The notes below the pieces were generated by a model that had not been told where the DNA came from, ran no database searches, and worked only from the letters and a program-made list of their open reading frames with translations. From sequence record OQ721909: DNA of 64,000 bases; one strand, written 5' to 3'. Source of the DNA: Escherichia phage vB_VIPECOOM01. The position numbers and the translations under genes were made by a program. Positions 2,448 through 63,175 of this stretch are shown here, one piece after another; positions within the stretch are counted from its first letter, which is position 1; each line of letters opens with the position of its first letter.

Positions 2448-4264
2448 TACTGGCTCATCCATTCTTTACGAAGGTCAGCATTATCTCCCATGAGCATTTC
2501 AAAAAGCTCTTTCCAGTTCTCAGGAAGTTTAACAACATCATATACTGGATTTTGAATCATCTCACGATATTCAGATTTTTCCAAAGAGCCAAGTCCCTTA
2601 ATATAACGGATGCTATGTTTAGGTAGAGCATCTTTGGCGCTCTCATATTCAGCGACTGTATAAAACCATTCTTGTTTTTTACCGACCTGAGCGATGATTA
2701 CAGGAGTTTTGACAAAGCGAATTCTTCCTTGTTCAAACAATTCTGGCCAATTACTGAAAAATCCGAGCAAAGAAGGATAAATGCTTCCTAGACCATCATG
2801 GTCAGCATCGGTCATAATTGCAATATTATGATAATTCAAGTTTTCAGCTTTTTCACCAAGAACTAATCCAGTGATTGCGCAAATATCAAATAGTTCTTTG
2901 TTTTTAAGCATATCAGCATATGACATGCCCCAACTGTTAAGAACTTTACCACGTAATGGATAACCACCATGAAGTTCTTTATCACGAACATCAATAAGAT
3001 ATCCGATAGCCGAATCACCCTCAGTCAAGAAAAGAGTAGTGTCAGCATCTTTACCACAAAGATTCGCTTTGATATGTTTATGAACCTTAGCTTTAGAGGC
3101 CTTTTTAGCTGCTTTAGTTTCTGCTGCCTTTTCTGCCGCCAATTTACGAGCCAAGGCAGCTTCAATGATTGGCATTAAAATTGCTTCATTATTCAAAATA
3201 GCACGTGAAATCTTTTTAGCATCAAGCTGAATATGACTACGGATTTCACCAAATGGAGAAGTCAAACGCTCTTTAGTTTGAGAGTCAAATCGCATGTTTT
3301 TCATATCACGAACAAACATAACGATAGTCAAACATTCTTTAACACGTGCTTTAGTTACATCAATTTTGAATTTACGTTTGATTTGTGGAATAAGGTCTTC
3401 ACAAATATCATCCATAACACAGTCAATGTGATGACCACCATTCTTAGTATGAATGTTATTAACGTACGTCAATTGACGAAAACCATCCGGTGAACGACCA
3501 ACCGCAATAGAACAGTTTTCTTGTTCTTGAACGATAGCATGCTCATCATATTGGCGTGCGTATTTCTTAAAATTACCCTGAACCTTTTTACCATTAAAGG
3601 TAAATTGAATATCAGGATAAACTACTGCAAGTGTCTGGAGACGATCTAGTGTAATGTCAAGATAAACTTGAGATAGCTCATTAGTTTCAAATGACATAAA
3701 ATCAGGAATGAAAGTAACGCGAGTTCCTTTCCATTTTCCAGGAATATCTTCCCATGATTTATTTTCCATGCCGTTTGAACAACGAACTACAATATTATTT
3801 TGACCGTCGCCAGTTTCACCGACAAACATCACAGAAAAAATGTTAGTTAAACTAGAGCCAACACCGTTCATACCGCCAGTGACGCGTTCTTTGTCATCAC
3901 CGAAGTTACCACCTGCTTTTGGAATAGTCCATGCAGCAACAGGACCAGGAATTTCTTCACCGGTAGGTGTTTTAACCATCGCCTGTGGAATACCACGACC
4001 GTTATCTTCAACTGTTACTTGATTGTTTTTAATAGTAACATTAATTTTATTCGCGAATTTAAACTTAGTACGAATACCTTCATCTACTGAGTTATCGATA
4101 ATTTCATCAATAAGCTTAACAAGACCAGGTACATACTGAACACTTTCCCATTTACCAAACAGAAAGCGCTCATGCATTTCATTAGCAGAAGAGCCAATAT
4201 ACATGCCGCTACGCTTTTTGATATGTTCAATATCGCTCAGAATTTTAATTTCATTCTTAATCAT
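2447..4264 (-). CDS. 39: DNA topoisomerase II large (ATPase) subunit, uninterrupted gp39 as in T2/T6
   Basis: GyrB-like ATPase/TOPRIM motifs (IDNSVDEG, GGMNGVGSS); 605 aa from ATG at 4264, track ORF starts one codon earlier at GTG; no gene 60 split. Confidence 0.9.
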   Translation of the reverse strand: MIKNEIKILSDIEHIKKRSGMYIGSSANEMHERFLFGKWESVQYVPGLVKLIDEIIDNSVDEGIRTKFKFANKINVTIKNNQVTVEDNGRGIPQAMVKTPTGEEIPGPVAAWTIPKAGGNFGDDKERVTGGMNGVGSSLTNIFSVMFVGETGDGQNNIVVRCSNGMENKSWEDIPGKWKGTRVTFIPDFMSFETNELSQVYLDITLDRLQTLAVVYPDIQFTFNGKKVQGNFKKYARQYDEHAIVQEQENCSIAVGRSPDGFRQLTYVNNIHTKNGGHHIDCVMDDICEDLIPQIKRKFKIDVTKARVKECLTIVMFVRDMKNMRFDSQTKERLTSPFGEIRSHIQLDAKKISRAILNNEAILMPIIEAALARKLAAEKAAETKAAKKASKAKVHKHIKANLCGKDADTTLFLTEGDSAIGYLIDVRDKELHGGYPLRGKVLNSWGMSYADMLKNKELFDICAITGLVLGEKAENLNYHNIAIMTDADHDGLGSIYPSLLGFFSNWPELFEQGRIRFVKTPVIIAQVGKKQEWFYTVAEYESAKDALPKHSIRYIKGLGSLEKSEYREMIQNPVYDVVKLPENWKELFEMLMGDNADLRKEWMSQ

Positions 4265-4291
4265 CACTTATCCTCGTTTGGTTTCGGGAAT

Positions 4292-4317
4292 ATTATACTC
4301 CAGTAATCATAAAGCTA
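4292..4317 (-). promoter_or_regulatory. MotA-dependent middle promoter for gene 39
   Basis: MotA box TAGCTTTA, 12-nt spacer, -10 TATAAT; directly follows the UUCG hairpin. Confidence 0.55.
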
Positions 4318-4319
4318 AA

Positions 4320-4331
4320 GGCCCGAAGGCC
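4320..4331 (-). terminator. UUCG-tetraloop hairpin
   Basis: GGCC-UUCG-GGCC on the transcript, immediately after the 4333..4605 stop. Confidence 0.55.
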
Positions 4332-4332
4332 T

Positions 4333-4605
4333 TTATTTAAAACGGATAGTCGAATCCTTGAAGAATAGACCAGAACATACTGTTCCTTCTACTTTCTGCC
4401 CGGTAGGTCCAATAGCACGAAATCCAGTATGCTGGAAATCATTTTCAGAGCAACCGAACCAATTATATCCAGTGATTTCAATATTAGTAAAACCACTTGA
4501 AGACAAAACTTTGGTTGCATTATCAGCATCAGTACATCCTACTAAAGATACTGCTAATACTAATGCCGCGATAGAACGATTAACATATTTCATAATTTCA
4601 CTCAA
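4333..4605 (-). CDS. small lipoprotein
   Basis: N-terminal signal peptide with lipobox LVGC; stop followed directly by a UUCG hairpin. Confidence 0.5.
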   Translation of the reverse strand: MSEIMKYVNRSIAALVLAVSLVGCTDADNATKVLSSSGFTNIEITGYNWFGCSENDFQHTGFRAIGPTGQKVEGTVCSGLFFKDSTIRFK

Positions 4606-4975
4606 ATTTAATGGCTTGAAGGAGACTAATAATTCTCAAGCGACTTCTTTCATCTTTAACTGTAAAAGAAAGAGGATCGCCAGATTTCATAGTGATGGTG
4701 CATCCAAAATCAAAATCTTCTGTAACTTCTTCGAAGAAGTCAAATTCTTCATCATAAATTAGAACATTACTCTGAAAACTATGAAGAATTTTTCCATCAT
4801 TTCCAGATGCTGTACTAATCATTGTAACATTATGGCCTTTCATATCTTCAACGATAAATTCGCTTGTAGATATTACAGTATTAATAGAACTATTCCTATA
4901 AATAGAAGAAAGTAGATATTTCTTTTCTTCACCTTCGCGAACACGATATTTCTTACCGATTTTAAACATAATCAC
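4598..4975 (-). CDS. hypothetical protein
   Basis: 125-aa ORF; track start codon is GTG, likely true ATG two codons in. Confidence 0.45.
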   Translation of the reverse strand: MIMFKIGKKYRVREGEEKKYLLSSIYRNSSINTVISTSEFIVEDMKGHNVTMISTASGNDGKILHSFQSNVLIYDEEFDFFEEVTEDFDFGCTITMKSGDPLSFTVKDERSRLRIISLLQAIKFE

Positions 4976-5148
4976 CCTTTAAGTAAGTCGTAAAATCCAC
5001 CATTCACATGCTTAGGAGCAGAAGGCCGACGAGTAGACAAACGATGACATTTAGGGCAAACATCATTTTCTCGTTCAGAAATCTTTTTAATTTTTTCATA
5101 TTCATGCCCACAATCTTCGGATTGGCATTTATAATCATACATTGGCAT
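4972..5148 (-). CDS. FmdB-family zinc-ribbon protein (58 aa), missing from the ORF track
   Basis: Hand translation MPMYDYKCQSEDCGHEYEKI...CPKCHRL; two CxxC pairs; frame checked, ATG 2 nt after upstream stop and TGA overlapping next start. Confidence 0.45.
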   Translation of the reverse strand: MPMYDYKCQSEDCGHEYEKIKKISERENDVCPKCHRLSTRRPSAPKHVNGGFYDLLKG

Positions 5149-5150
5149 AA

Positions 5151-5570
5151 TTATTCCTTAAAATGTGCTTTCAACATCTGATACAAGGACCATGCCTGTT
5201 CATTATTTTCAATAGTAACTTTCATTACCGGGAATTCTGTGAAATCTTCTATTTGTTCTTGCTCTTCCTGCTCTTGTTCTTCAGCAGCCTGATATGGATT
5301 TTCCACTTCATCAAAGAACTCAGCTTCGTTAGTAGAGAGCCAGATAAAGTTTTCGTCAATGACTGTACCACATGTTGAATATCCAATTGTACCAGTAGAT
5401 GTCACAATTTTAGTAGGACGCCCGTAATAGTCAACATCTAAAATTTTAAAAGGTTCCATACCTAAACGTCGTGCATAGATTCCGTTGTCAGTATGGTCTT
5501 TAATAAAATTTTCTTGAGCTTGTTTATTTTTAAATTGATACCATTTATTAACTTCAAATCTAATAGCCAT
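5151..5570 (-). CDS. hypothetical acidic protein (goF position)
   Basis: 139 aa with [10 protein letters not shown] acidic tract; positional guess only. Confidence 0.45.
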
Positions 5571-5785
5571 TAATAAATTTCCTTCCAGTAAGTTGTGCCA
5601 TCTTCAGTAATTTCACGAAATACACCGTAAATCGGTTGTTTATCACCAACCTTTTCATACACATAAACCGAAGTCAAGTGAGTAAACTTAACAGTATGTT
5701 CCTTTTGAACCACTACCAAATCTGGATCGAATAATACATCTTCAAATTCGTCATTAGTGCATTTCTGAACAGTTTTACGTTTCAT
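5570..5785 (-). CDS. hypothetical protein (cef position)
   Basis: 71 aa, same length as T4 Cef; start overlaps upstream stop. Confidence 0.4.
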
Positions 5786-5798
5786 TACAATTTCCTCA

Positions 5799-6068
5799 TT
5801 AATTGAACAGTGGAGCGATGCGTTTCAGAAGAGTAGCAGCACCTTTGGCGAATTTTACATCATGAAAAACAGTTTCTTCTTCCGTTACAACACGAACTTT
5901 AATGTTTTCACAATCCCAATTTTTACGAACAATCTTCAAAAGCTGCAGTAAATCTTTACATTCAGCAATATCGATAACACATCCACGAGAATCTTCCATT
6001 ATCGCACGATAACCGTAAGCCGTACCATAATCGTTGAAAGATTGCTCGATGATAATTAAGTTTTCCAT
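5799..6068 (-). CDS. hypothetical protein
   Basis: ATG at 6068 with GGAG SD; track ORF starts at upstream TTG; preceded by the conserved promoter-leader cassette. Confidence 0.5.
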   Translation of the reverse strand: MENLIIIEQSFNDYGTAYGYRAIMEDSRGCVIDIAECKDLLQLLKIVRKNWDCENIKVRVVTEEETVFHDVKFAKGAATLLKRIAPLFN

Positions 6069-6080
6069 TTTATTCTCCAA

Positions 6081-6165
6081 GTTGTTTTCTGTATCAGTAG
6101 TTGATATTGATATAGTACCATAATCAACTACTGATGTATATAGTTTTATGAAAAAATTTTAAACT
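6081..6165 (-). promoter_or_regulatory. conserved promoter-leader cassette, copy A (diverged)
   Basis: UP-like AAAATTTTTTCA, -10 TACTAT, leader ending TTGGAGAATAAAATG; shared with copies at about 24739..24830 and 51978..52062. Confidence 0.5.
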
Positions 6166-15182: not shown

Positions 15183-15428
15183 TTAACCACCAGTTACTTT
15201 CCACAAATCTTCGTTTGCGGCAATCCATTCAGTACGTTGATTTTCTTCATATACTGTAGAATATGCTGCTTTTTCTGAAGGGAATGTCTGGTAATGAGCG
15301 CCAGAAATTTTGTGAACGTCAGAATAAAGAGGGAAAGCTACAGAAATTTCCTTTCCTTCAATTTTCTTATTTCCATCTAATTTCTGCTCAAACGTTTTGA
15401 TATTAACATAACCGCGAGTACTAGCCAT
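15183..15428 (-). CDS. soc: small outer capsid protein Soc
   Basis: 81 aa vs 80 aa in T4; TATAAATA late promoter upstream; UUCG hairpin downstream. Confidence 0.85.
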   Translation of the reverse strand: MASTRGYVNIKTFEQKLDGNKKIEGKEISVAFPLYSDVHKISGAHYQTFPSEKAAYSTVYEENQRTEWIAANEDLWKVTGG

Positions 15429-15458
15429 GTAATTCTCCTTTTATTTAAATTACATGAT

Positions 15459-15466
15459 TATTTATA
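15459..15466 (-). promoter_or_regulatory. late promoter TATAAATA for soc
   Basis: Exact TATAAATA about 30 nt upstream of the soc ATG. Confidence 0.6.
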
Positions 15467-15510
15467 ATAATTCTCACGGCTTTTAAGTCGTCGTTTAAAT
15501 AAACGAGCTA

Positions 15511-16029
15511 TTAATAACCTCGGTCTTGACGAGCGAAGTTTTCAGCATTTTTCAGATAATAAAGTTTAAAAATTTCTTCAGCCGTAAGACCAAGACCTTG
15601 GAACATGTTCAGAACGAAATGAAGAATATCAATCATTTCGAATTTAATTTCCAACTGATCTTGCGGAGACAAATCAGTAATTAGAGTTTCACGGCGTTCA
15701 CCATGTTGAGCTTTCCAAGGCTTCCATACAGCAGATGCATCTTTTTCACCATTGCTCATACCGCCAAGAGAAGTTAGAAGTTCACGGAATTCATCATCAA
15801 TATAATCTTTCTGATTACGCAGCCAATCAACAACTTCACCTGCAGTAGCCAAATCATCAGGATGACGGTTATATTCAGGTTTATCTTTAGCTAAACGAAC
15901 TTGCAGAGATTTCTGCATATCAAGCATAACTTGCAGCGGGTCTTTTTCATCACCGAGAATATCCCAGTATTCATTTTGAGCTTTATCAGCGCCTTCGATC
16001 AATTGTGAACATTCATTAAAGTATGCCAT
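15511..16029 (-). CDS. 56: dCTP pyrophosphatase gp56 (MazG-like)
   Basis: 172 aa from ATG at 16029 (T4 gp56 171 aa); track ORF is N-terminally extended. Confidence 0.8.
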   Translation of the reverse strand: MAYFNECSQLIEGADKAQNEYWDILGDEKDPLQVMLDMQKSLQVRLAKDKPEYNRHPDDLATAGEVVDWLRNQKDYIDDEFRELLTSLGGMSNGEKDASAVWKPWKAQHGERRETLITDLSPQDQLEIKFEMIDILHFVLNMFQGLGLTAEEIFKLYYLKNAENFARQDRGY

Positions 16030-16100
16030 TATTTTTCCTTTCAATTCATGGATTAGTAGATTAATTATACAATAAATATATAAAGCAATAAGGAGGACAT

Positions 16101-16301
16101 ATGGTGCAAAAATTAATGGCACTTGTTAATGCCATCAAAGGTAATAAAAAACGTATAGCTTTTACTATTTCTGCTATGATAGGAATTTTACTTTGGAATT
16201 TTGTTTTATCGCCAGTTGCTATTGCTCATGGCGTTAGTATTCCAGTAATTACTCTTGATACATTCGTAGATTTAGCATTTGCTTTAGTTGGGTTAATTTA
16301 A
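16101..16301 (+). CDS. small two-helix membrane protein (plus strand)
   Basis: 66 aa, hydrophobic; AGGAGG SD 4 nt before ATG; fills the 56/61 gap where T4 carries segF; 3' end converges on gene 61. Confidence 0.45.
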   Translation: MVQKLMALVNAIKGNKKRIAFTISAMIGILLWNFVLSPVAIAHGVSIPVITLDTFVDLAFALVGLI

Positions 16302-17326
16302 ATCTTAGCATATTTAGATAGCCGCATTTTAGCCATCAACCCTTGGGCAATATTATTTTTCATATATTCCATAATTTGTTCAGGGGTTGCACCTTCCTTT
16401 CTAATCATATCATTAACATCTTTTGATTTCCAGGGAGATTTGTCCCAAAACATAACCCTTTCTCCTGCATCAACTAATTTAGTCATTCGTTTAATAGTGT
16501 CAGGGTGACGAGGTTCATTATCTAAAACCCATACACGTCTATCTTTAAATGGAACAATTTCTAGGTCTAATTGGCCACCCGTAATAGCTATACCATTTTC
16601 AATAAAAAGTGAATCTATAGGTCCTTCTAGAACATATACATCACCATCTTTAACCCGTTCGACACCATAGATTTTTGTTGCCTCAGGATAAGCTTTGATG
16701 GTGATATATTTTTGAGGAGCATCTTTCTTTAATGCACGTCCTTGAAAAGACTCAGCTTTTCCATTAGCATTATAAATTGGAATAACAAGACGAGGCTCAG
16801 GTATTTCCTTTTTATATGTTCCTGGTGCTATACTATTAACTAATTTAGGCCATTCGGTTGTAAACCAAAGATATTTCCATTTATCCTTTGGAATACAGCG
16901 AGCTTTTACATATTTTATAATTGGATGGTCTTCCGTCAGTTTATCTAATCTAATACATGACGGAAGAGATTTAATTATTTTCTTCTCAGGTTGTTTAGGA
17001 AGTTCTTTAGGTTTTTCTACTGGACGACTTTTACCTTTTTCTTTTCTTATTTCAAAGATATACTCACGATATAAATCAGGTTCAAACTCCTTTAAATATA
17101 TTCCGATTGGTGCATGATAGTTACAGTTATAACAATGAATATTTCCTTCATTATTATCACCATAATACCATCCACGGGCTTTATTTTGGTCGGTTTTTGA
17201 ATCTCCACAAACAGGGCATCTAAACCGCAATTTAAAAGTTGAACTATTATTTACTTGTGTGAATTTAGGTAAATGAGCCAATGCACGGTATGCAAACTCA
17301 TTATCAATCCAAGGTATTGATGACAT
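16298..17326 (-). CDS. 61: DNA primase gp61
   Basis: 342 aa as T4 gp61; zinc ribbon CPVCGDS...CYNC; ATG checked. Confidence 0.9.
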   Translation of the reverse strand: MSSIPWIDNEFAYRALAHLPKFTQVNNSSTFKLRFRCPVCGDSKTDQNKARGWYYGDNNEGNIHCYNCNYHAPIGIYLKEFEPDLYREYIFEIRKEKGKSRPVEKPKELPKQPEKKIIKSLPSCIRLDKLTEDHPIIKYVKARCIPKDKWKYLWFTTEWPKLVNSIAPGTYKKEIPEPRLVIPIYNANGKAESFQGRALKKDAPQKYITIKAYPEATKIYGVERVKDGDVYVLEGPIDSLFIENGIAITGGQLDLEIVPFKDRRVWVLDNEPRHPDTIKRMTKLVDAGERVMFWDKSPWKSKDVNDMIRKEGATPEQIMEYMKNNIAQGLMAKMRLSKYAKI

Positions 17327-17494: not shown

Positions 17495-17851
17495 TTAACC
17501 TCTATTCATAAAAGCATTAAAAATTTGGTCATCAATCGATGGAATAGCAACCTTTTCTACATCATTTAACAAATCATTAATTTCGTCAGATAGCATAACG
17601 CATGTACCTTTATTTCCTGTAATTGTTACTGCGCAATTACGAACGTTTTCTTTATCAAATTTTAGGTTAATATTTTCGTAGTGAAAATCCTTTAATGCCG
17701 AATATATTTTTAAAATGAAATTGTCTTTTACTACAATAAACCCAACCTCACTATTAAAACGTGGTTCATGGAAACTGTAATAAACCTTTTCATCTATAAA
17801 ATCGTATGAAATTTTTTCCATTTTTAAATATGAAAATTCAGAACTATACAT
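17495..17851 (-). CDS. hypothetical protein (61.1 position)
   Basis: 118 aa; last 12 codons and stop are nucleotide-identical to the next ORF. Confidence 0.45.
   Translation of the reverse strand: MYSSEFSYLKMEKISYDFIDEKVYYSFHEPRFNSEVGFIVVKDNFILKIYSALKDFHYENINLKFDKENVRNCAVTITGNKGTCVMLSDEINDLLNDVEKVAIPSIDDQIFNAFMNRG
17500..17536. repeat. 37-nt direct repeat, copy 1
   Basis: ctctattcataaaagcattaaaaatttggtcatcaat, identical to 17858..17894. Confidence 0.8.
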
Positions 17852-17852
17852 A

Positions 17853-18479
17853 CTAATCTCTATTCATAAAAGCATTAAAAATTTGGTCATCAATAGAAAC
17901 ATTCACTTTAGACTGTTTTTCTGATGTCAATTCATATCCGCATATTACAATTTTGTGATCAATATCAAAATATGCAGAAGCAATATGATTAATGATGTTT
18001 TCAGTAAAGTCTAAATCAACATCAATATCTTTTTGACCACAACCTAAAGGATAAATAATGCGAGTAATTCGATTATCTTTAACAAAGATTCCACCGACAT
18101 ACTCAGTGTTACGTTTAAAGTCTACACGCCGACGAAATGAAAAATATTCAGGCTCTTTATGAGCTCGGCTCATAGGACACAACGAGTAACTAGAGTAAGA
18201 GATGTCAAATCCTACGCCTTCAATATGAGCCAAAGTATCATGATTAAACCAATTATAATCGTACGCCAAGTCCATTAGATTATAATATGTAAAAGGCACC
18301 GGATTAACATCATTAGTCACAAGCATGTAATTAGCAACTGCTATAATTTCGTTGTTTTTAACGAATACAAACCGTGATTGATGCGAATGACCTGGACCCG
18401 CGTTTTCACGATTAATGATATAACACTGGGCACCTTTATATTTGTATGTATCTTTGCACTTGTGCATTTGATAGAGCAT
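17853..18479 (-). CDS. hypothetical protein (61.2 position)
   Basis: 208 aa; shares C-terminal SIDDQIFNAFMNR with 17495..17851. Confidence 0.45.
   Translation of the reverse strand: MLYQMHKCKDTYKYKGAQCYIINRENAGPGHSHQSRFVFVKNNEIIAVANYMLVTNDVNPVPFTYYNLMDLAYDYNWFNHDTLAHIEGVGFDISYSSYSLCPMSRAHKEPEYFSFRRRVDFKRNTEYVGGIFVKDNRITRIIYPLGCGQKDIDVDLDFTENIINHIASAYFDIDHKIVICGYELTSEKQSKVNVSIDDQIFNAFMNRD
17858..17894. repeat. 37-nt direct repeat, copy 2
   Basis: Identical to 17500..17536; encodes the shared C-terminus of the 61.1/61.2 ORFs. Confidence 0.8.
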
Positions 18480-29863: not shown

Positions 29864-30550
29864 TTAAAAGTCGTGGGTAGAATCAGCTTCAAGAGCTACT
29901 ACATAATTCGCATGTTCACCTTCAAATTTAGCAGCACCTTGTTTACCTTTTGCCCAGAGCAGAAGTTTATAATTTCCTGGTTGCATTTTCATATTTGCCA
30001 TATTGATAATGAAATTAAATGTATTTTCACCATCATAATCACCAAGAGTCAAAGAATATTTAACACGGGTCAAAGCAGAATCTTCTACTTTATTAAAACC
30101 GTTAATTACGATTTTACCTTCTTTTACTGTGATAGCAATTGTATCAATCTGCAGACCACGAGATACACGCAACAGCTGTTGAAGGTCTTCAGCTTTAATT
30201 TCAGTAACAACAGATGCTACCGGGAATGGAATTGGTTTATTAGGAGCAACTACTGTACTCGGATCGGCTGCTGGCCAAAAAATTGTTGAACGAGCATCAG
30301 CAATTTTAATATTACCATCTTCTGACTGGGAAATTTCTGCATCATCATTAACTAGGGACAGAATACCGAGAAAACCGTTCAAATCGTAAATTGCTACATC
30401 AAAATCAATAGTGTCAGAAATATTTGCTTCTGCATAAGTTGTACCATTAACTGCGCGAGTCATAATAAATTGACCGGATTTAAGCATAATACCAGAGTTA
30501 ATAGTAGCGAAATTTTTAAGCAGAGCAGTAGTATCTTTAGACAGTTTCAT
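29864..30550 (-). CDS. 45: sliding clamp gp45
   Basis: 228 aa as T4 gp45; synteny. Confidence 0.9.
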   Translation of the reverse strand: MKLSKDTTALLKNFATINSGIMLKSGQFIMTRAVNGTTYAEANISDTIDFDVAIYDLNGFLGILSLVNDDAEISQSEDGNIKIADARSTIFWPAADPSTVVAPNKPIPFPVASVVTEIKAEDLQQLLRVSRGLQIDTIAITVKEGKIVINGFNKVEDSALTRVKYSLTLGDYDGENTFNFIINMANMKMQPGNYKLLLWAKGKQGAAKFEGEHANYVVALEADSTHDF

Positions 30551-62872: not shown

Positions 62873-63175
62873 TTATTTACCTTTAATTACTTTAGCTGCT
62901 TCGATAGCCGCTTGCTGAAGGTCATCCATAGACATACCGAATTTAGAAGCAAAGTTATCAATTTTCTTTTCGACAGCATTCAAAGGCTTGGCCTGTTTAC
63001 CTTCATTAGCGCCAGGAAGAGCGAGAATACGCTCTTTGTCAATATAAAGGCTTACAAGTTTCTTACGGTCTTTATCGGACAAATCATGAAATGAATGGGC
63101 CTTTTTATTTATAGCGGCTTCTAATTTACCTGCACTCACTCGCGCTTCAGCAATAAATTCTTGATATGTTTTCAT
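62873..63175 (-). CDS. ipII: internal protein II
   Basis: 100 aa as T4 IPII; CTS MKTYQEFIAEA. Confidence 0.85.
   Translation of the reverse strand: MKTYQEFIAEARVSAGKLEAAINKKAHSFHDLSDKDRKKLVSLYIDKERILALPGANEGKQAKPLNAVEKKIDNFASKFGMSMDDLQQAAIEAAKVIKGK

Follow-up and report, generated by a model that had tools for sequence, protein, structure and literature searches.

The DNA analysed here, a window of 64,000 nucleotides (nt) from Escherichia phage vB_VIPECOOM01 (GenBank OQ721909), carries a short gap between genes 56 (dCTPase) and 61 (DNA primase) in which an open reading frame (ORF) of 66 amino acids (aa) runs against its neighbours. Is this ORF a gene? If so, is it a fixed part of the locus or an accessory insertion, when is it expressed and what might its product do? 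Our reading, to which we assign a probability of roughly 0.8, is that it is a conserved Tevenvirinae gene, dam.1, probably transcribed late, whose product is predicted to be a single-pass inner-membrane protein acting late in infection.

GenBank OQ721911 (Escherichia phage vB_VIPECOOM03, Tequatrovirus) is 100% identical to the window with equal coordinates. The gap exists as the initial annotation of the DNA had stated, though its length is 268 nt (between 16029 and 16298) rather than 270, and the ORF is present in it on the plus strand with an ATG start. The Shine-Dalgarno (SD) sequence AGGAGG described 4 nt before the ATG is there (spacer acat), as is the convergent overlap of the 3′ end with the gene 61 stop, through the tetranucleotide TTAA. 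The remark that nearly all coding is on the minus strand was an understatement. Among about 124 coding sequences (CDSs) annotated in positions 1-64.5 kb of OQ721911, this ORF is the only one on the plus strand.

Coding status and conservation of the ORF

The window contains 34 plus-strand ORFs of at least 60 aa with an ATG start, so the length of this one is by itself unremarkable. An SD sequence was found before just one of the 34, that at 16101..16301, and the plus strand of the 64-kb window has a single instance of the pattern AGGAGG-N3-9-ATG. The ORF differs from that of T4 at 15 of 198 nt; 10 of the changes are synonymous and five are conservative replacements, giving a ratio of nonsynonymous to synonymous substitution rates (dN/dS) of 0.13. 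Most other Tequatrovirus pairs give similar values. Across seven Tequatrovirus copies the variable sites are distributed 7/2/12 over codon positions 1/2/3. There are no stops in the frame of the ORF, compared with five to nine in four of the five alternative frames; the complementary frame has one stop and a dN/dS of 0.15, the value expected for that register. The ORF is a genuine protein-coding gene.

It could be argued that the ORF arose by chance, the spacer serving in reality to carry a minus-strand terminator for gene 61 and a promoter for gene 56. Plus-strand ORFs of 60 aa or more do arise by chance in the window, as the count above indicates, and minus-strand elements resembling a promoter and a terminator overlap the region. 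Against this stand the low dN/dS, a frame that is open in 684 of 694 records, an amino-acid motif kept at 20-50% identity, the uniqueness of the SD sequence and a candidate terminator hairpin that is not conserved outside Tequatrovirus. We regard the probability of a chance ORF as negligible.

The protein was matched by tblastn in 694 phage records, 684 of them at 80% coverage or more, and it matches the PHROG 2024 profile with an E value of 1.9e-30, residues 2-66 aligning with profile positions 1-65 of 65. A search for the peptide at the 56/61 junction of other T-even phages, proposed in the initial annotation, returned homologs convergent on gene 61 in at least eight genera. In Mosigvirus (RB69ORF029w), Gaprivervirus, Kanagawavirus, Marfavirus, Jiaodavirus, Gelderlandvirus and Moonvirus, homologs of 20-52% identity occupy the same strand and position, immediately next to the 3′ end of the primase gene. 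The window copy is 92% identical to that of T4 and 52% identical to that of RB69, and the same 4-nt stop overlap with gene 61 is seen in T4, RB69, Potts1 and NM4.3.

The family motif is W-N-x4-P-x-A-x3-G-x2-L-P-x4-(D/E). Across 36 diverse members there is no variation at W32, N33 and P38, conservation at A40, G44, L47 and P48 is at least 90%, and position 53 is usually acidic. The window protein has W32, N33, P38, A40, G44, P48 and D53, with Ile in place of Leu at position 47. Profile, position and orientation, and family motif all assign it to the PHROG 2024/dam.1 group. Judged from these sequences, the gene is vertically conserved in Tevenvirinae. Krischvirus JSE, Tulanevirus ZHF and Acinetobacter phage Ac42 lack it at the 61/56 junction. 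When 1.84 billion representative proteins were searched with a profile, only 18 clusters matched, and a single-protein search for related loci gave only five IMG/VR loci.

The Gaprivervirus TH15 carries two intact tandem paralogs (L006 2495-2692 and 2701-2901). The second starts 8 nt past the stop of the first and resembles the Marfavirus/Kanagawavirus type. The second Gaprivervirus copy is frameshifted in VR20 and degraded or largely deleted in EAWsc9 (L005 2759-2896; L011 1955-2090).

The gene has been catalogued before, as dam.1, RB69ORF029w, RB32ORF030w and PHROG 2024, in each case as a "hypothetical protein" with no assigned function. In T4 (NC_000866) the interval from gene 56 to gene 61 holds dam and then 309 nt with no annotated feature. 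Those 309 nt contain the same 66-aa plus-strand ORF (T4 17738..17938), intact and unannotated in the T4 reference records NC_000866 and AF158101. The T4T record HM137666 annotates it as dam.1, "hypothetical protein" (ADJ39749.1). RB69ORF029w is listed among the RB69 ORFs with one transmembrane (TM) helix predicted by TMHMM at 21-41 (PMC1524935, supplementary file 2), and Nolan et al. (2006) counted this copy as novel on the ground that T4 seemed to be without it. Since the T4 reference records omit the gene, it escapes any transcriptome or proteome study based on them; a published T4 omics study used the reference annotation, without the ORF, and the words "antisense" and "unannotated" are absent from its text. 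In PEi20 (NC_028683) the ORF is also intact yet unannotated (L009 1780-1965), and in the RefSeq T2 record only the primase gene is listed under the gene 61 match.

Is the ORF itself the variable part of the locus? The initial annotation had placed the T4 homing endonuclease gene segF at the 56/61 junction and considered the ORF an accessory insertion at that hotspot. Neither point could be sustained. T4 segF sits between soc and gene 56 (NC_000866), that is, on the other side of gene 56; it lies on the minus strand, encodes a 224-aa GIY-YIG endonuclease and shares with the ORF only its nearness to gene 56. The gene is absent from the window, where soc and gene 56 are 82 nt apart (15429-15510) and the soc ATG is preceded at about 30 nt by TATAAATA (15466..15459, minus strand). 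No GIY-YIG or HNH endonuclease domain was found in the 66-aa protein by family searches or in its AlphaFold2 (AF2) model. The variable site is the slot between the ORF and gene 56. This is empty (71 nt) in the window and in several IMG/VR relatives, and is occupied by dam in T4 (L002 3847-4626), by a homing endonuclease in Salmonella phage GRNsp7 (L029 932-1582) and by a MazG-like 94-aa ORF in Kanagawavirus, Marfavirus and Moonvirus (L004 2137-2421). The ORF itself is constant in position, lying directly against the 3′ end of gene 61 in every one of at least eight genera.

Such a changing neighbourhood is what could be said for a mobile, segF-like insertion. The sporadic presence and absence characteristic of homing insertions was not found; the ORF is full-length in 684 of the 694 matching records and keeps one position by gene 61 across 8 genera, diverging along with them. 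With segF on the far side of gene 56 as well, we consider an insertion highly improbable.

Signals for transcription and translation

When would this gene be expressed? A core similar to that of T4 late promoters, AATAAATA, precedes the SD sequence. From this we infer a gp55-dependent late promoter, with a predicted start at about 16084 and a 17-nt leader, and the ORF is probably switched on late. A late core, NATAAATA, is found in 10 of 12 homolog loci, and TTAAATA in the other two (SEA1 and NM4.3), the 3′ end of the core lying 12-22 nt before the ATG. The variants are TATAAATA in ZX14 and Potts1, CATAAATA in VR20, TH15, EAWsc9, PEi20 and KP179, AATAAATA in the window and RB69, and GATAAATA in T4. 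Only 1.6% of the 40-nt windows in these loci have such a motif. The upstream flanks of homologs from different genera do not align; the late-type core is nevertheless kept.

The ribosome-binding site is conserved also. GGAG(G) lies 4-6 nt before the ATG at all 12 loci and at six further Tequatrovirus loci, and the pairing of SD sequence and ATG, whose loss in relatives the initial annotation would have held against the gene, is kept in every relative examined.

The heptamer ATAAATA is depleted 4.7-fold in the window, with nine copies observed where shuffles predict 42 ± 6. Of the five copies on the minus strand, four stand just upstream of soc, gene 49, rI.-1/rI and ipII, genes that are late-expressed in T4. 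The ORF thus resembles T4 late genes embedded in early regions (soc, the late start of gene 49, rI) in having a TATAAATA-type core shortly upstream of a strong SD sequence, the motif being otherwise rare in the window. It differs in that soc, gene 49 and rI are on the minus strand like their neighbours, whereas the dam.1 ORF is on the opposite strand and monocistronic, has A instead of T at position -13 and is assigned to late transcription from sequence. The T at -13 of the T4 late core is poorly conserved (PMC1524935).

Copies of ATAAATA at 4898, 18051 and 61331 on the plus strand and at 63106 on the minus strand have no convincing ORF after them, that at 63106 being inside the ipII-like CDS. 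These copies could drive late antisense RNA or be inactive.

No plus-strand terminator was found downstream of the ORF, and a late transcript would therefore probably run antisense into gene 61. Might the RNA then be what matters, with late antisense transcription shutting off primase synthesis and the peptide of secondary importance? The tight and conserved convergence, the overlapping stops and the lack of a terminator would suit such a role. However, purifying selection acts at the level of the protein, the amino-acid motif is kept across genera whose DNA no longer aligns, and in Gaprivervirus a second paralog or its remnant sits between the ORF and gene 61. As the explanation of the locus this is very unlikely; an antisense role could coexist with a protein function.

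Minus-strand signals occupy the same spacer (Table 1). The middle-promoter pattern assigned to gene 56 has 13 matches in the window compared with 3.1 expected, a number reached by none of 100 shuffles. The middle-promoter-like site stands back to back with the plus-strand late core and overlaps it; two promoters of different temporal class, divergent and overlapping, would then share the 71-nt spacer. A terminator-like hairpin on the minus strand has a folding free energy of -12.4 kcal/mol (z -3.1) in the window and -8.9 in T4, and is absent from RB69, VR20, ZX14 and Potts1. It was rejected as the reason for conservation, being confined to Tequatrovirus.

Further along the minus strand, after 61.1, the ORFs at 17495-17851 and 17853-18479 have near-identical ends, …SIDDQIFNAFMNRG and …SIDDQIFNAFMNRD. 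T4 has only 61.2 there; the additional ORF, of 118 aa, has the look of a paralog or a partial duplicate.

Table 1. Features at and around the dam.1 locus, numbered as in the window
Feature	Position	Strand	Basis or remark
soc	15183..15428	-	
Gene 56 (dCTPase), flanking	15511..16029	-	
Middle-promoter-like site for gene 56: MotA box TGCTTTA, 11 nt, TATAAT	16064..16087	-	Consensus match only
T4 late-promoter-like core AATAAATA (consensus TATAAATA at -13..-6)	16071..16078	+	Motif match
Shine-Dalgarno sequence AGGAGG	16091..16096	+	4 nt before ATG
CDS, 66 aa and stop, ATG start	16101..16301	+	Ortholog of T4T dam.1, RB69ORF029w, PHROG 2024
aa 1-18, basic amphipathic N-terminal segment, 5 K/R, 0 D/E	16101..16154	+	Predicted cytoplasmic
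Terminator-like hairpin and U-run	16113..16138	-	About 160 nt past gene 61 stop, within ORF codons 5-13
aa 19-42, predicted transmembrane helix: W32-N33 (16194-16199), P38 (16212-16214), near-invariant A40	16155..16226	+	Hydropathy, AF2, invariant columns
aa 43-66, juxtamembrane loop (G44, L47, P48, D/E53) and short C-terminal hydrophobic helix	16227..16298	+	Predicted periplasmic/interface
Stop-codon overlap of ORF and gene 61, TTAA	16298..16301		Convergent
Gene 61 (DNA primase), neighbour	16298..17326	-	Convergent

The predicted protein and its distant relatives

An AF2 model calculated from a 36-sequence alignment, with a predicted local distance difference test score of 81.6, has helices at aa 2-12, 16-42 and 52-62. 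The product had been described as a two-helix membrane peptide. Its membrane character is borne out by one clear hydrophobic span of 24 residues (aa 19-42). The second TM helix is not, the C-terminal helix (aa 52-62) being short and containing two Asp. Since this helix is too short, and in many members of the family too polar, a two-helix hairpin is not the best reading. The N-terminal segment varies in sequence between subfamilies and is basic in nearly all; Lys and Arg are enriched on the N-terminal side of the TM helix in nearly all of the 36 members. In most members the segment aa 43-66 has none or one of these residues and one or two acidic residues. The positive-inside rule then predicts an N-in/C-out arrangement with aa 19-42 as the single TM helix, and the protein is best read as a single-pass inner-membrane protein of that topology.

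Conservation is concentrated in two places, the half of the TM helix predicted to lie in the outer leaflet (W32, N33, P38 and A40) and the juxtamembrane loop. An Asn kept invariant within a membrane span is a typical sign of association between helices. The position of the conserved residues suggests that the protein may act through helix-helix or juxtamembrane contacts, made either with itself or with an inner-membrane partner.

Distant members of the family match PHROG 2024 at E values of 1e-9 to 1e-13 with the motif kept. They occur in uncultured siphovirus-like contigs, one from E. coli assemblies (L018 5001-6610; L020, L021, L023, L024 and L026 around 4260-6100). The gene comes directly after that for endonuclease VII in five of the six contigs, with a 4-8 nt overlap with the 3′ end of the latter in four; the sixth, L018, has its endonuclease VII gene close by but divergent. 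The further genes, where present, are a 180-aa "minor tail"-like ORF and then others. In L018 the distant member is the first of four genes in a run whose last gene encodes a lysozyme; L024 has a lysozyme gene as well, 3.5 kb away on the opposite strand. Near the distant members in every contig there is also a small protein with a TM segment and a coiled coil that shows weak Rz-like spanin matches. These late-looking operons fit, rather than prove, a late and possibly lysis-linked role. A CTAAATA sequence is present in L018, its 3′ end 21 nt before the ATG. Searches by tblastn with P0138, P0132 and P0142 gave nothing informative among cultured phages, and none of the distant members had a match in a cultured phage of the collection.

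Possible functions

How might such a protein work? The gene would be transcribed alone from the gp55-type late promoter AATAAATA, against the surrounding early and middle genes, and translated from its strong SD sequence. The basic, sequence-variable N-terminal helix would remain cytoplasmic and anchor the topology. The single TM helix would carry the invariant Trp-Asn pair and the Pro in its outer-leaflet half, with a short conserved loop and helix (G..LP....D/E) facing the periplasm, and late in infection the protein may make contact with itself or with another inner-membrane protein.

Database searches give little guidance on what this contact would achieve. Pfam (36 members), NCBIfam (13 members) and PDB sequence searches returned no family, only noise, and in BFVD a Foldseek search matched the AF2 model to nothing outside the family. 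Comparison with T4-type Imm and RI by hhalign gave a probability below 1% for both. Nothing was found in the literature on the function of dam.1, RB69ORF029w or PHROG 2024. Automatic annotation in the databases has produced the labels "Holin", "holin family protein", "virion structural protein [STEP3]" and "head morphogenesis", which do not agree with one another. We rejected the STEP3 "virion structural" tag as evidence, as the same record, OQ721911, places it on the sliding clamp gp45 (29864-30550) and on other non-structural genes. Also rejected was the conserved (V/I)-x-(L/M)-(D/E) as a gp21 prohead-protease (L/I-x-E) site, the spacing being unfit and Tequatrovirus having Asp.

With these data the functional class is assigned tentatively. 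The likeliest class, though still less probable than not, is an accessory of lysis timing or of the lysis apparatus, holin-like or holin-modulating, a class in which we include a true holin. More specifically, and more doubtfully, it may be a late inner-membrane component, overlooked in T4 genetics, that tunes holin triggering, lysis inhibition or another late membrane event through the Trp-Asn/Pro face of its TM helix. The product is like the small phage holins and antiholins (T7 gp17.5, S21 pinholin, T4 RI) in size, predicted membrane location, putative late timing and the presence of polar TM residues. It is unlike them in having no match to their families, no charged C-terminal tail and, in the T-even phages, no adjacent endolysin gene, and by profile it is unrelated to RI.

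Several points weigh against the proposal of a late-acting membrane protein linked to lysis. The late expression rests on a motif of 7-8 nt, and the list of Nolan et al. gives no late promoter before RB69ORF029w (PMC1524935). A T4 mutant record, OL964745 (clone T4_7t1, L031 1162-1405), has a 2-nt deletion at about codon 22 of the ORF and a 4-nt deletion in the leader, between the SD sequence and the ATG. Should the former be genuine, the phage can do without the gene under laboratory conditions; the record splits dam as well, so a sequencing error is possible. We found no paper on the T4_7t1 mutant. The Pfam and NCBIfam holin families gave no match, the only hit being that of one distant member to phrog_3427 with an E value of 0.002. 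The charged C-terminal tail typical of holins is lacking, the protein ending in …DLAFALVGLI, which is hydrophobic, with its charge at the N-terminus. The T-even gene is not beside e, t, rI or the spanin genes, and the endolysin gene is at 63944-64438. T4 lysis genetics, built on the r mutants, is old and dense, and we know of no lysis function that maps here.

The missing charged tail and the absence of an adjacent endolysin gene in the T-even phages also count against a holin proper, a second small T-even holin that would permeabilize the inner membrane late. At 66 aa with a TM helix at 19-42 the protein has the small size and the one or more TM helices of a holin, and the putative late promoter would provide the timing. 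The UniRef name "Holin" for the OE5505 homolog, the "holin family protein" of the EAWsc9 record, the match to holin phrog_3427 and the lysozyme gene that ends the run headed by the distant member in L018 point the same way. The names are automatic, however, and no curated holin family was matched. In addition T4 already has holin T, the loss of which blocks lysis. A holin proper is decidedly unlikely.

A different role for a small inner-membrane protein is superinfection exclusion, or the protection of progeny, by blocking incoming phage DNA at the inner membrane in the manner of T4 Imm or HK97 gp15. These also are small inner-membrane proteins of enterobacterial phages, and the conserved face of the dam.1 product is predicted to be towards the periplasm. 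The gene is found in enterobacterial phages only (Tevenvirinae and the E. coli-associated uncultured group, with JSE, ZHF and Ac42 lacking it at the junction), a distribution suggestive of a partner specific to the host. Tail genes are where exclusion morons such as HK97 gp15 occur, and the distant homologs lie in a tail-gene neighbourhood, as HK97 gene 15 does. Imm differs in that it has no sequence relation to the protein and is made early. It would be odd for a lytic phage that has Imm and Sp from early in infection to make a further exclusion protein late. We judge exclusion unlikely.

The same restriction to enterobacterial phages argues against a core function in the virion and for one directed at the host or its envelope. 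It bears on the suggestion that the protein is morphogenetic or virion-associated, serving for example to anchor assembly to the membrane or, once ejected, to act on a membrane. The putative late timing, the STEP3 tag and the tail-gene-like neighbours in the uncultured group would support this. The tag is unreliable, as its presence on gp45 indicates, and the gene is absent in Krischvirus, Tulanevirus and the Acinetobacter T4-like phages, which share the virion plan of T4. To our knowledge, moreover, the well-studied T4 virion has no unassigned 7-kDa component. A virion role is improbable.

What does the gene mean for the T-even phages? T4 is the reference for the whole phage family, and the gene should be useful for annotation and for catalogues of T-even late functions. 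It is conserved in Tevenvirinae and under purifying selection, and is the lone opposite-strand gene of the first 64 kb, behind a conserved late-promoter motif. It is a testable small membrane protein and not a new kind of system. If it does modulate lysis or another membrane event, it would be a new part in a system thought to be complete; otherwise it would be one more conserved hypothetical protein.

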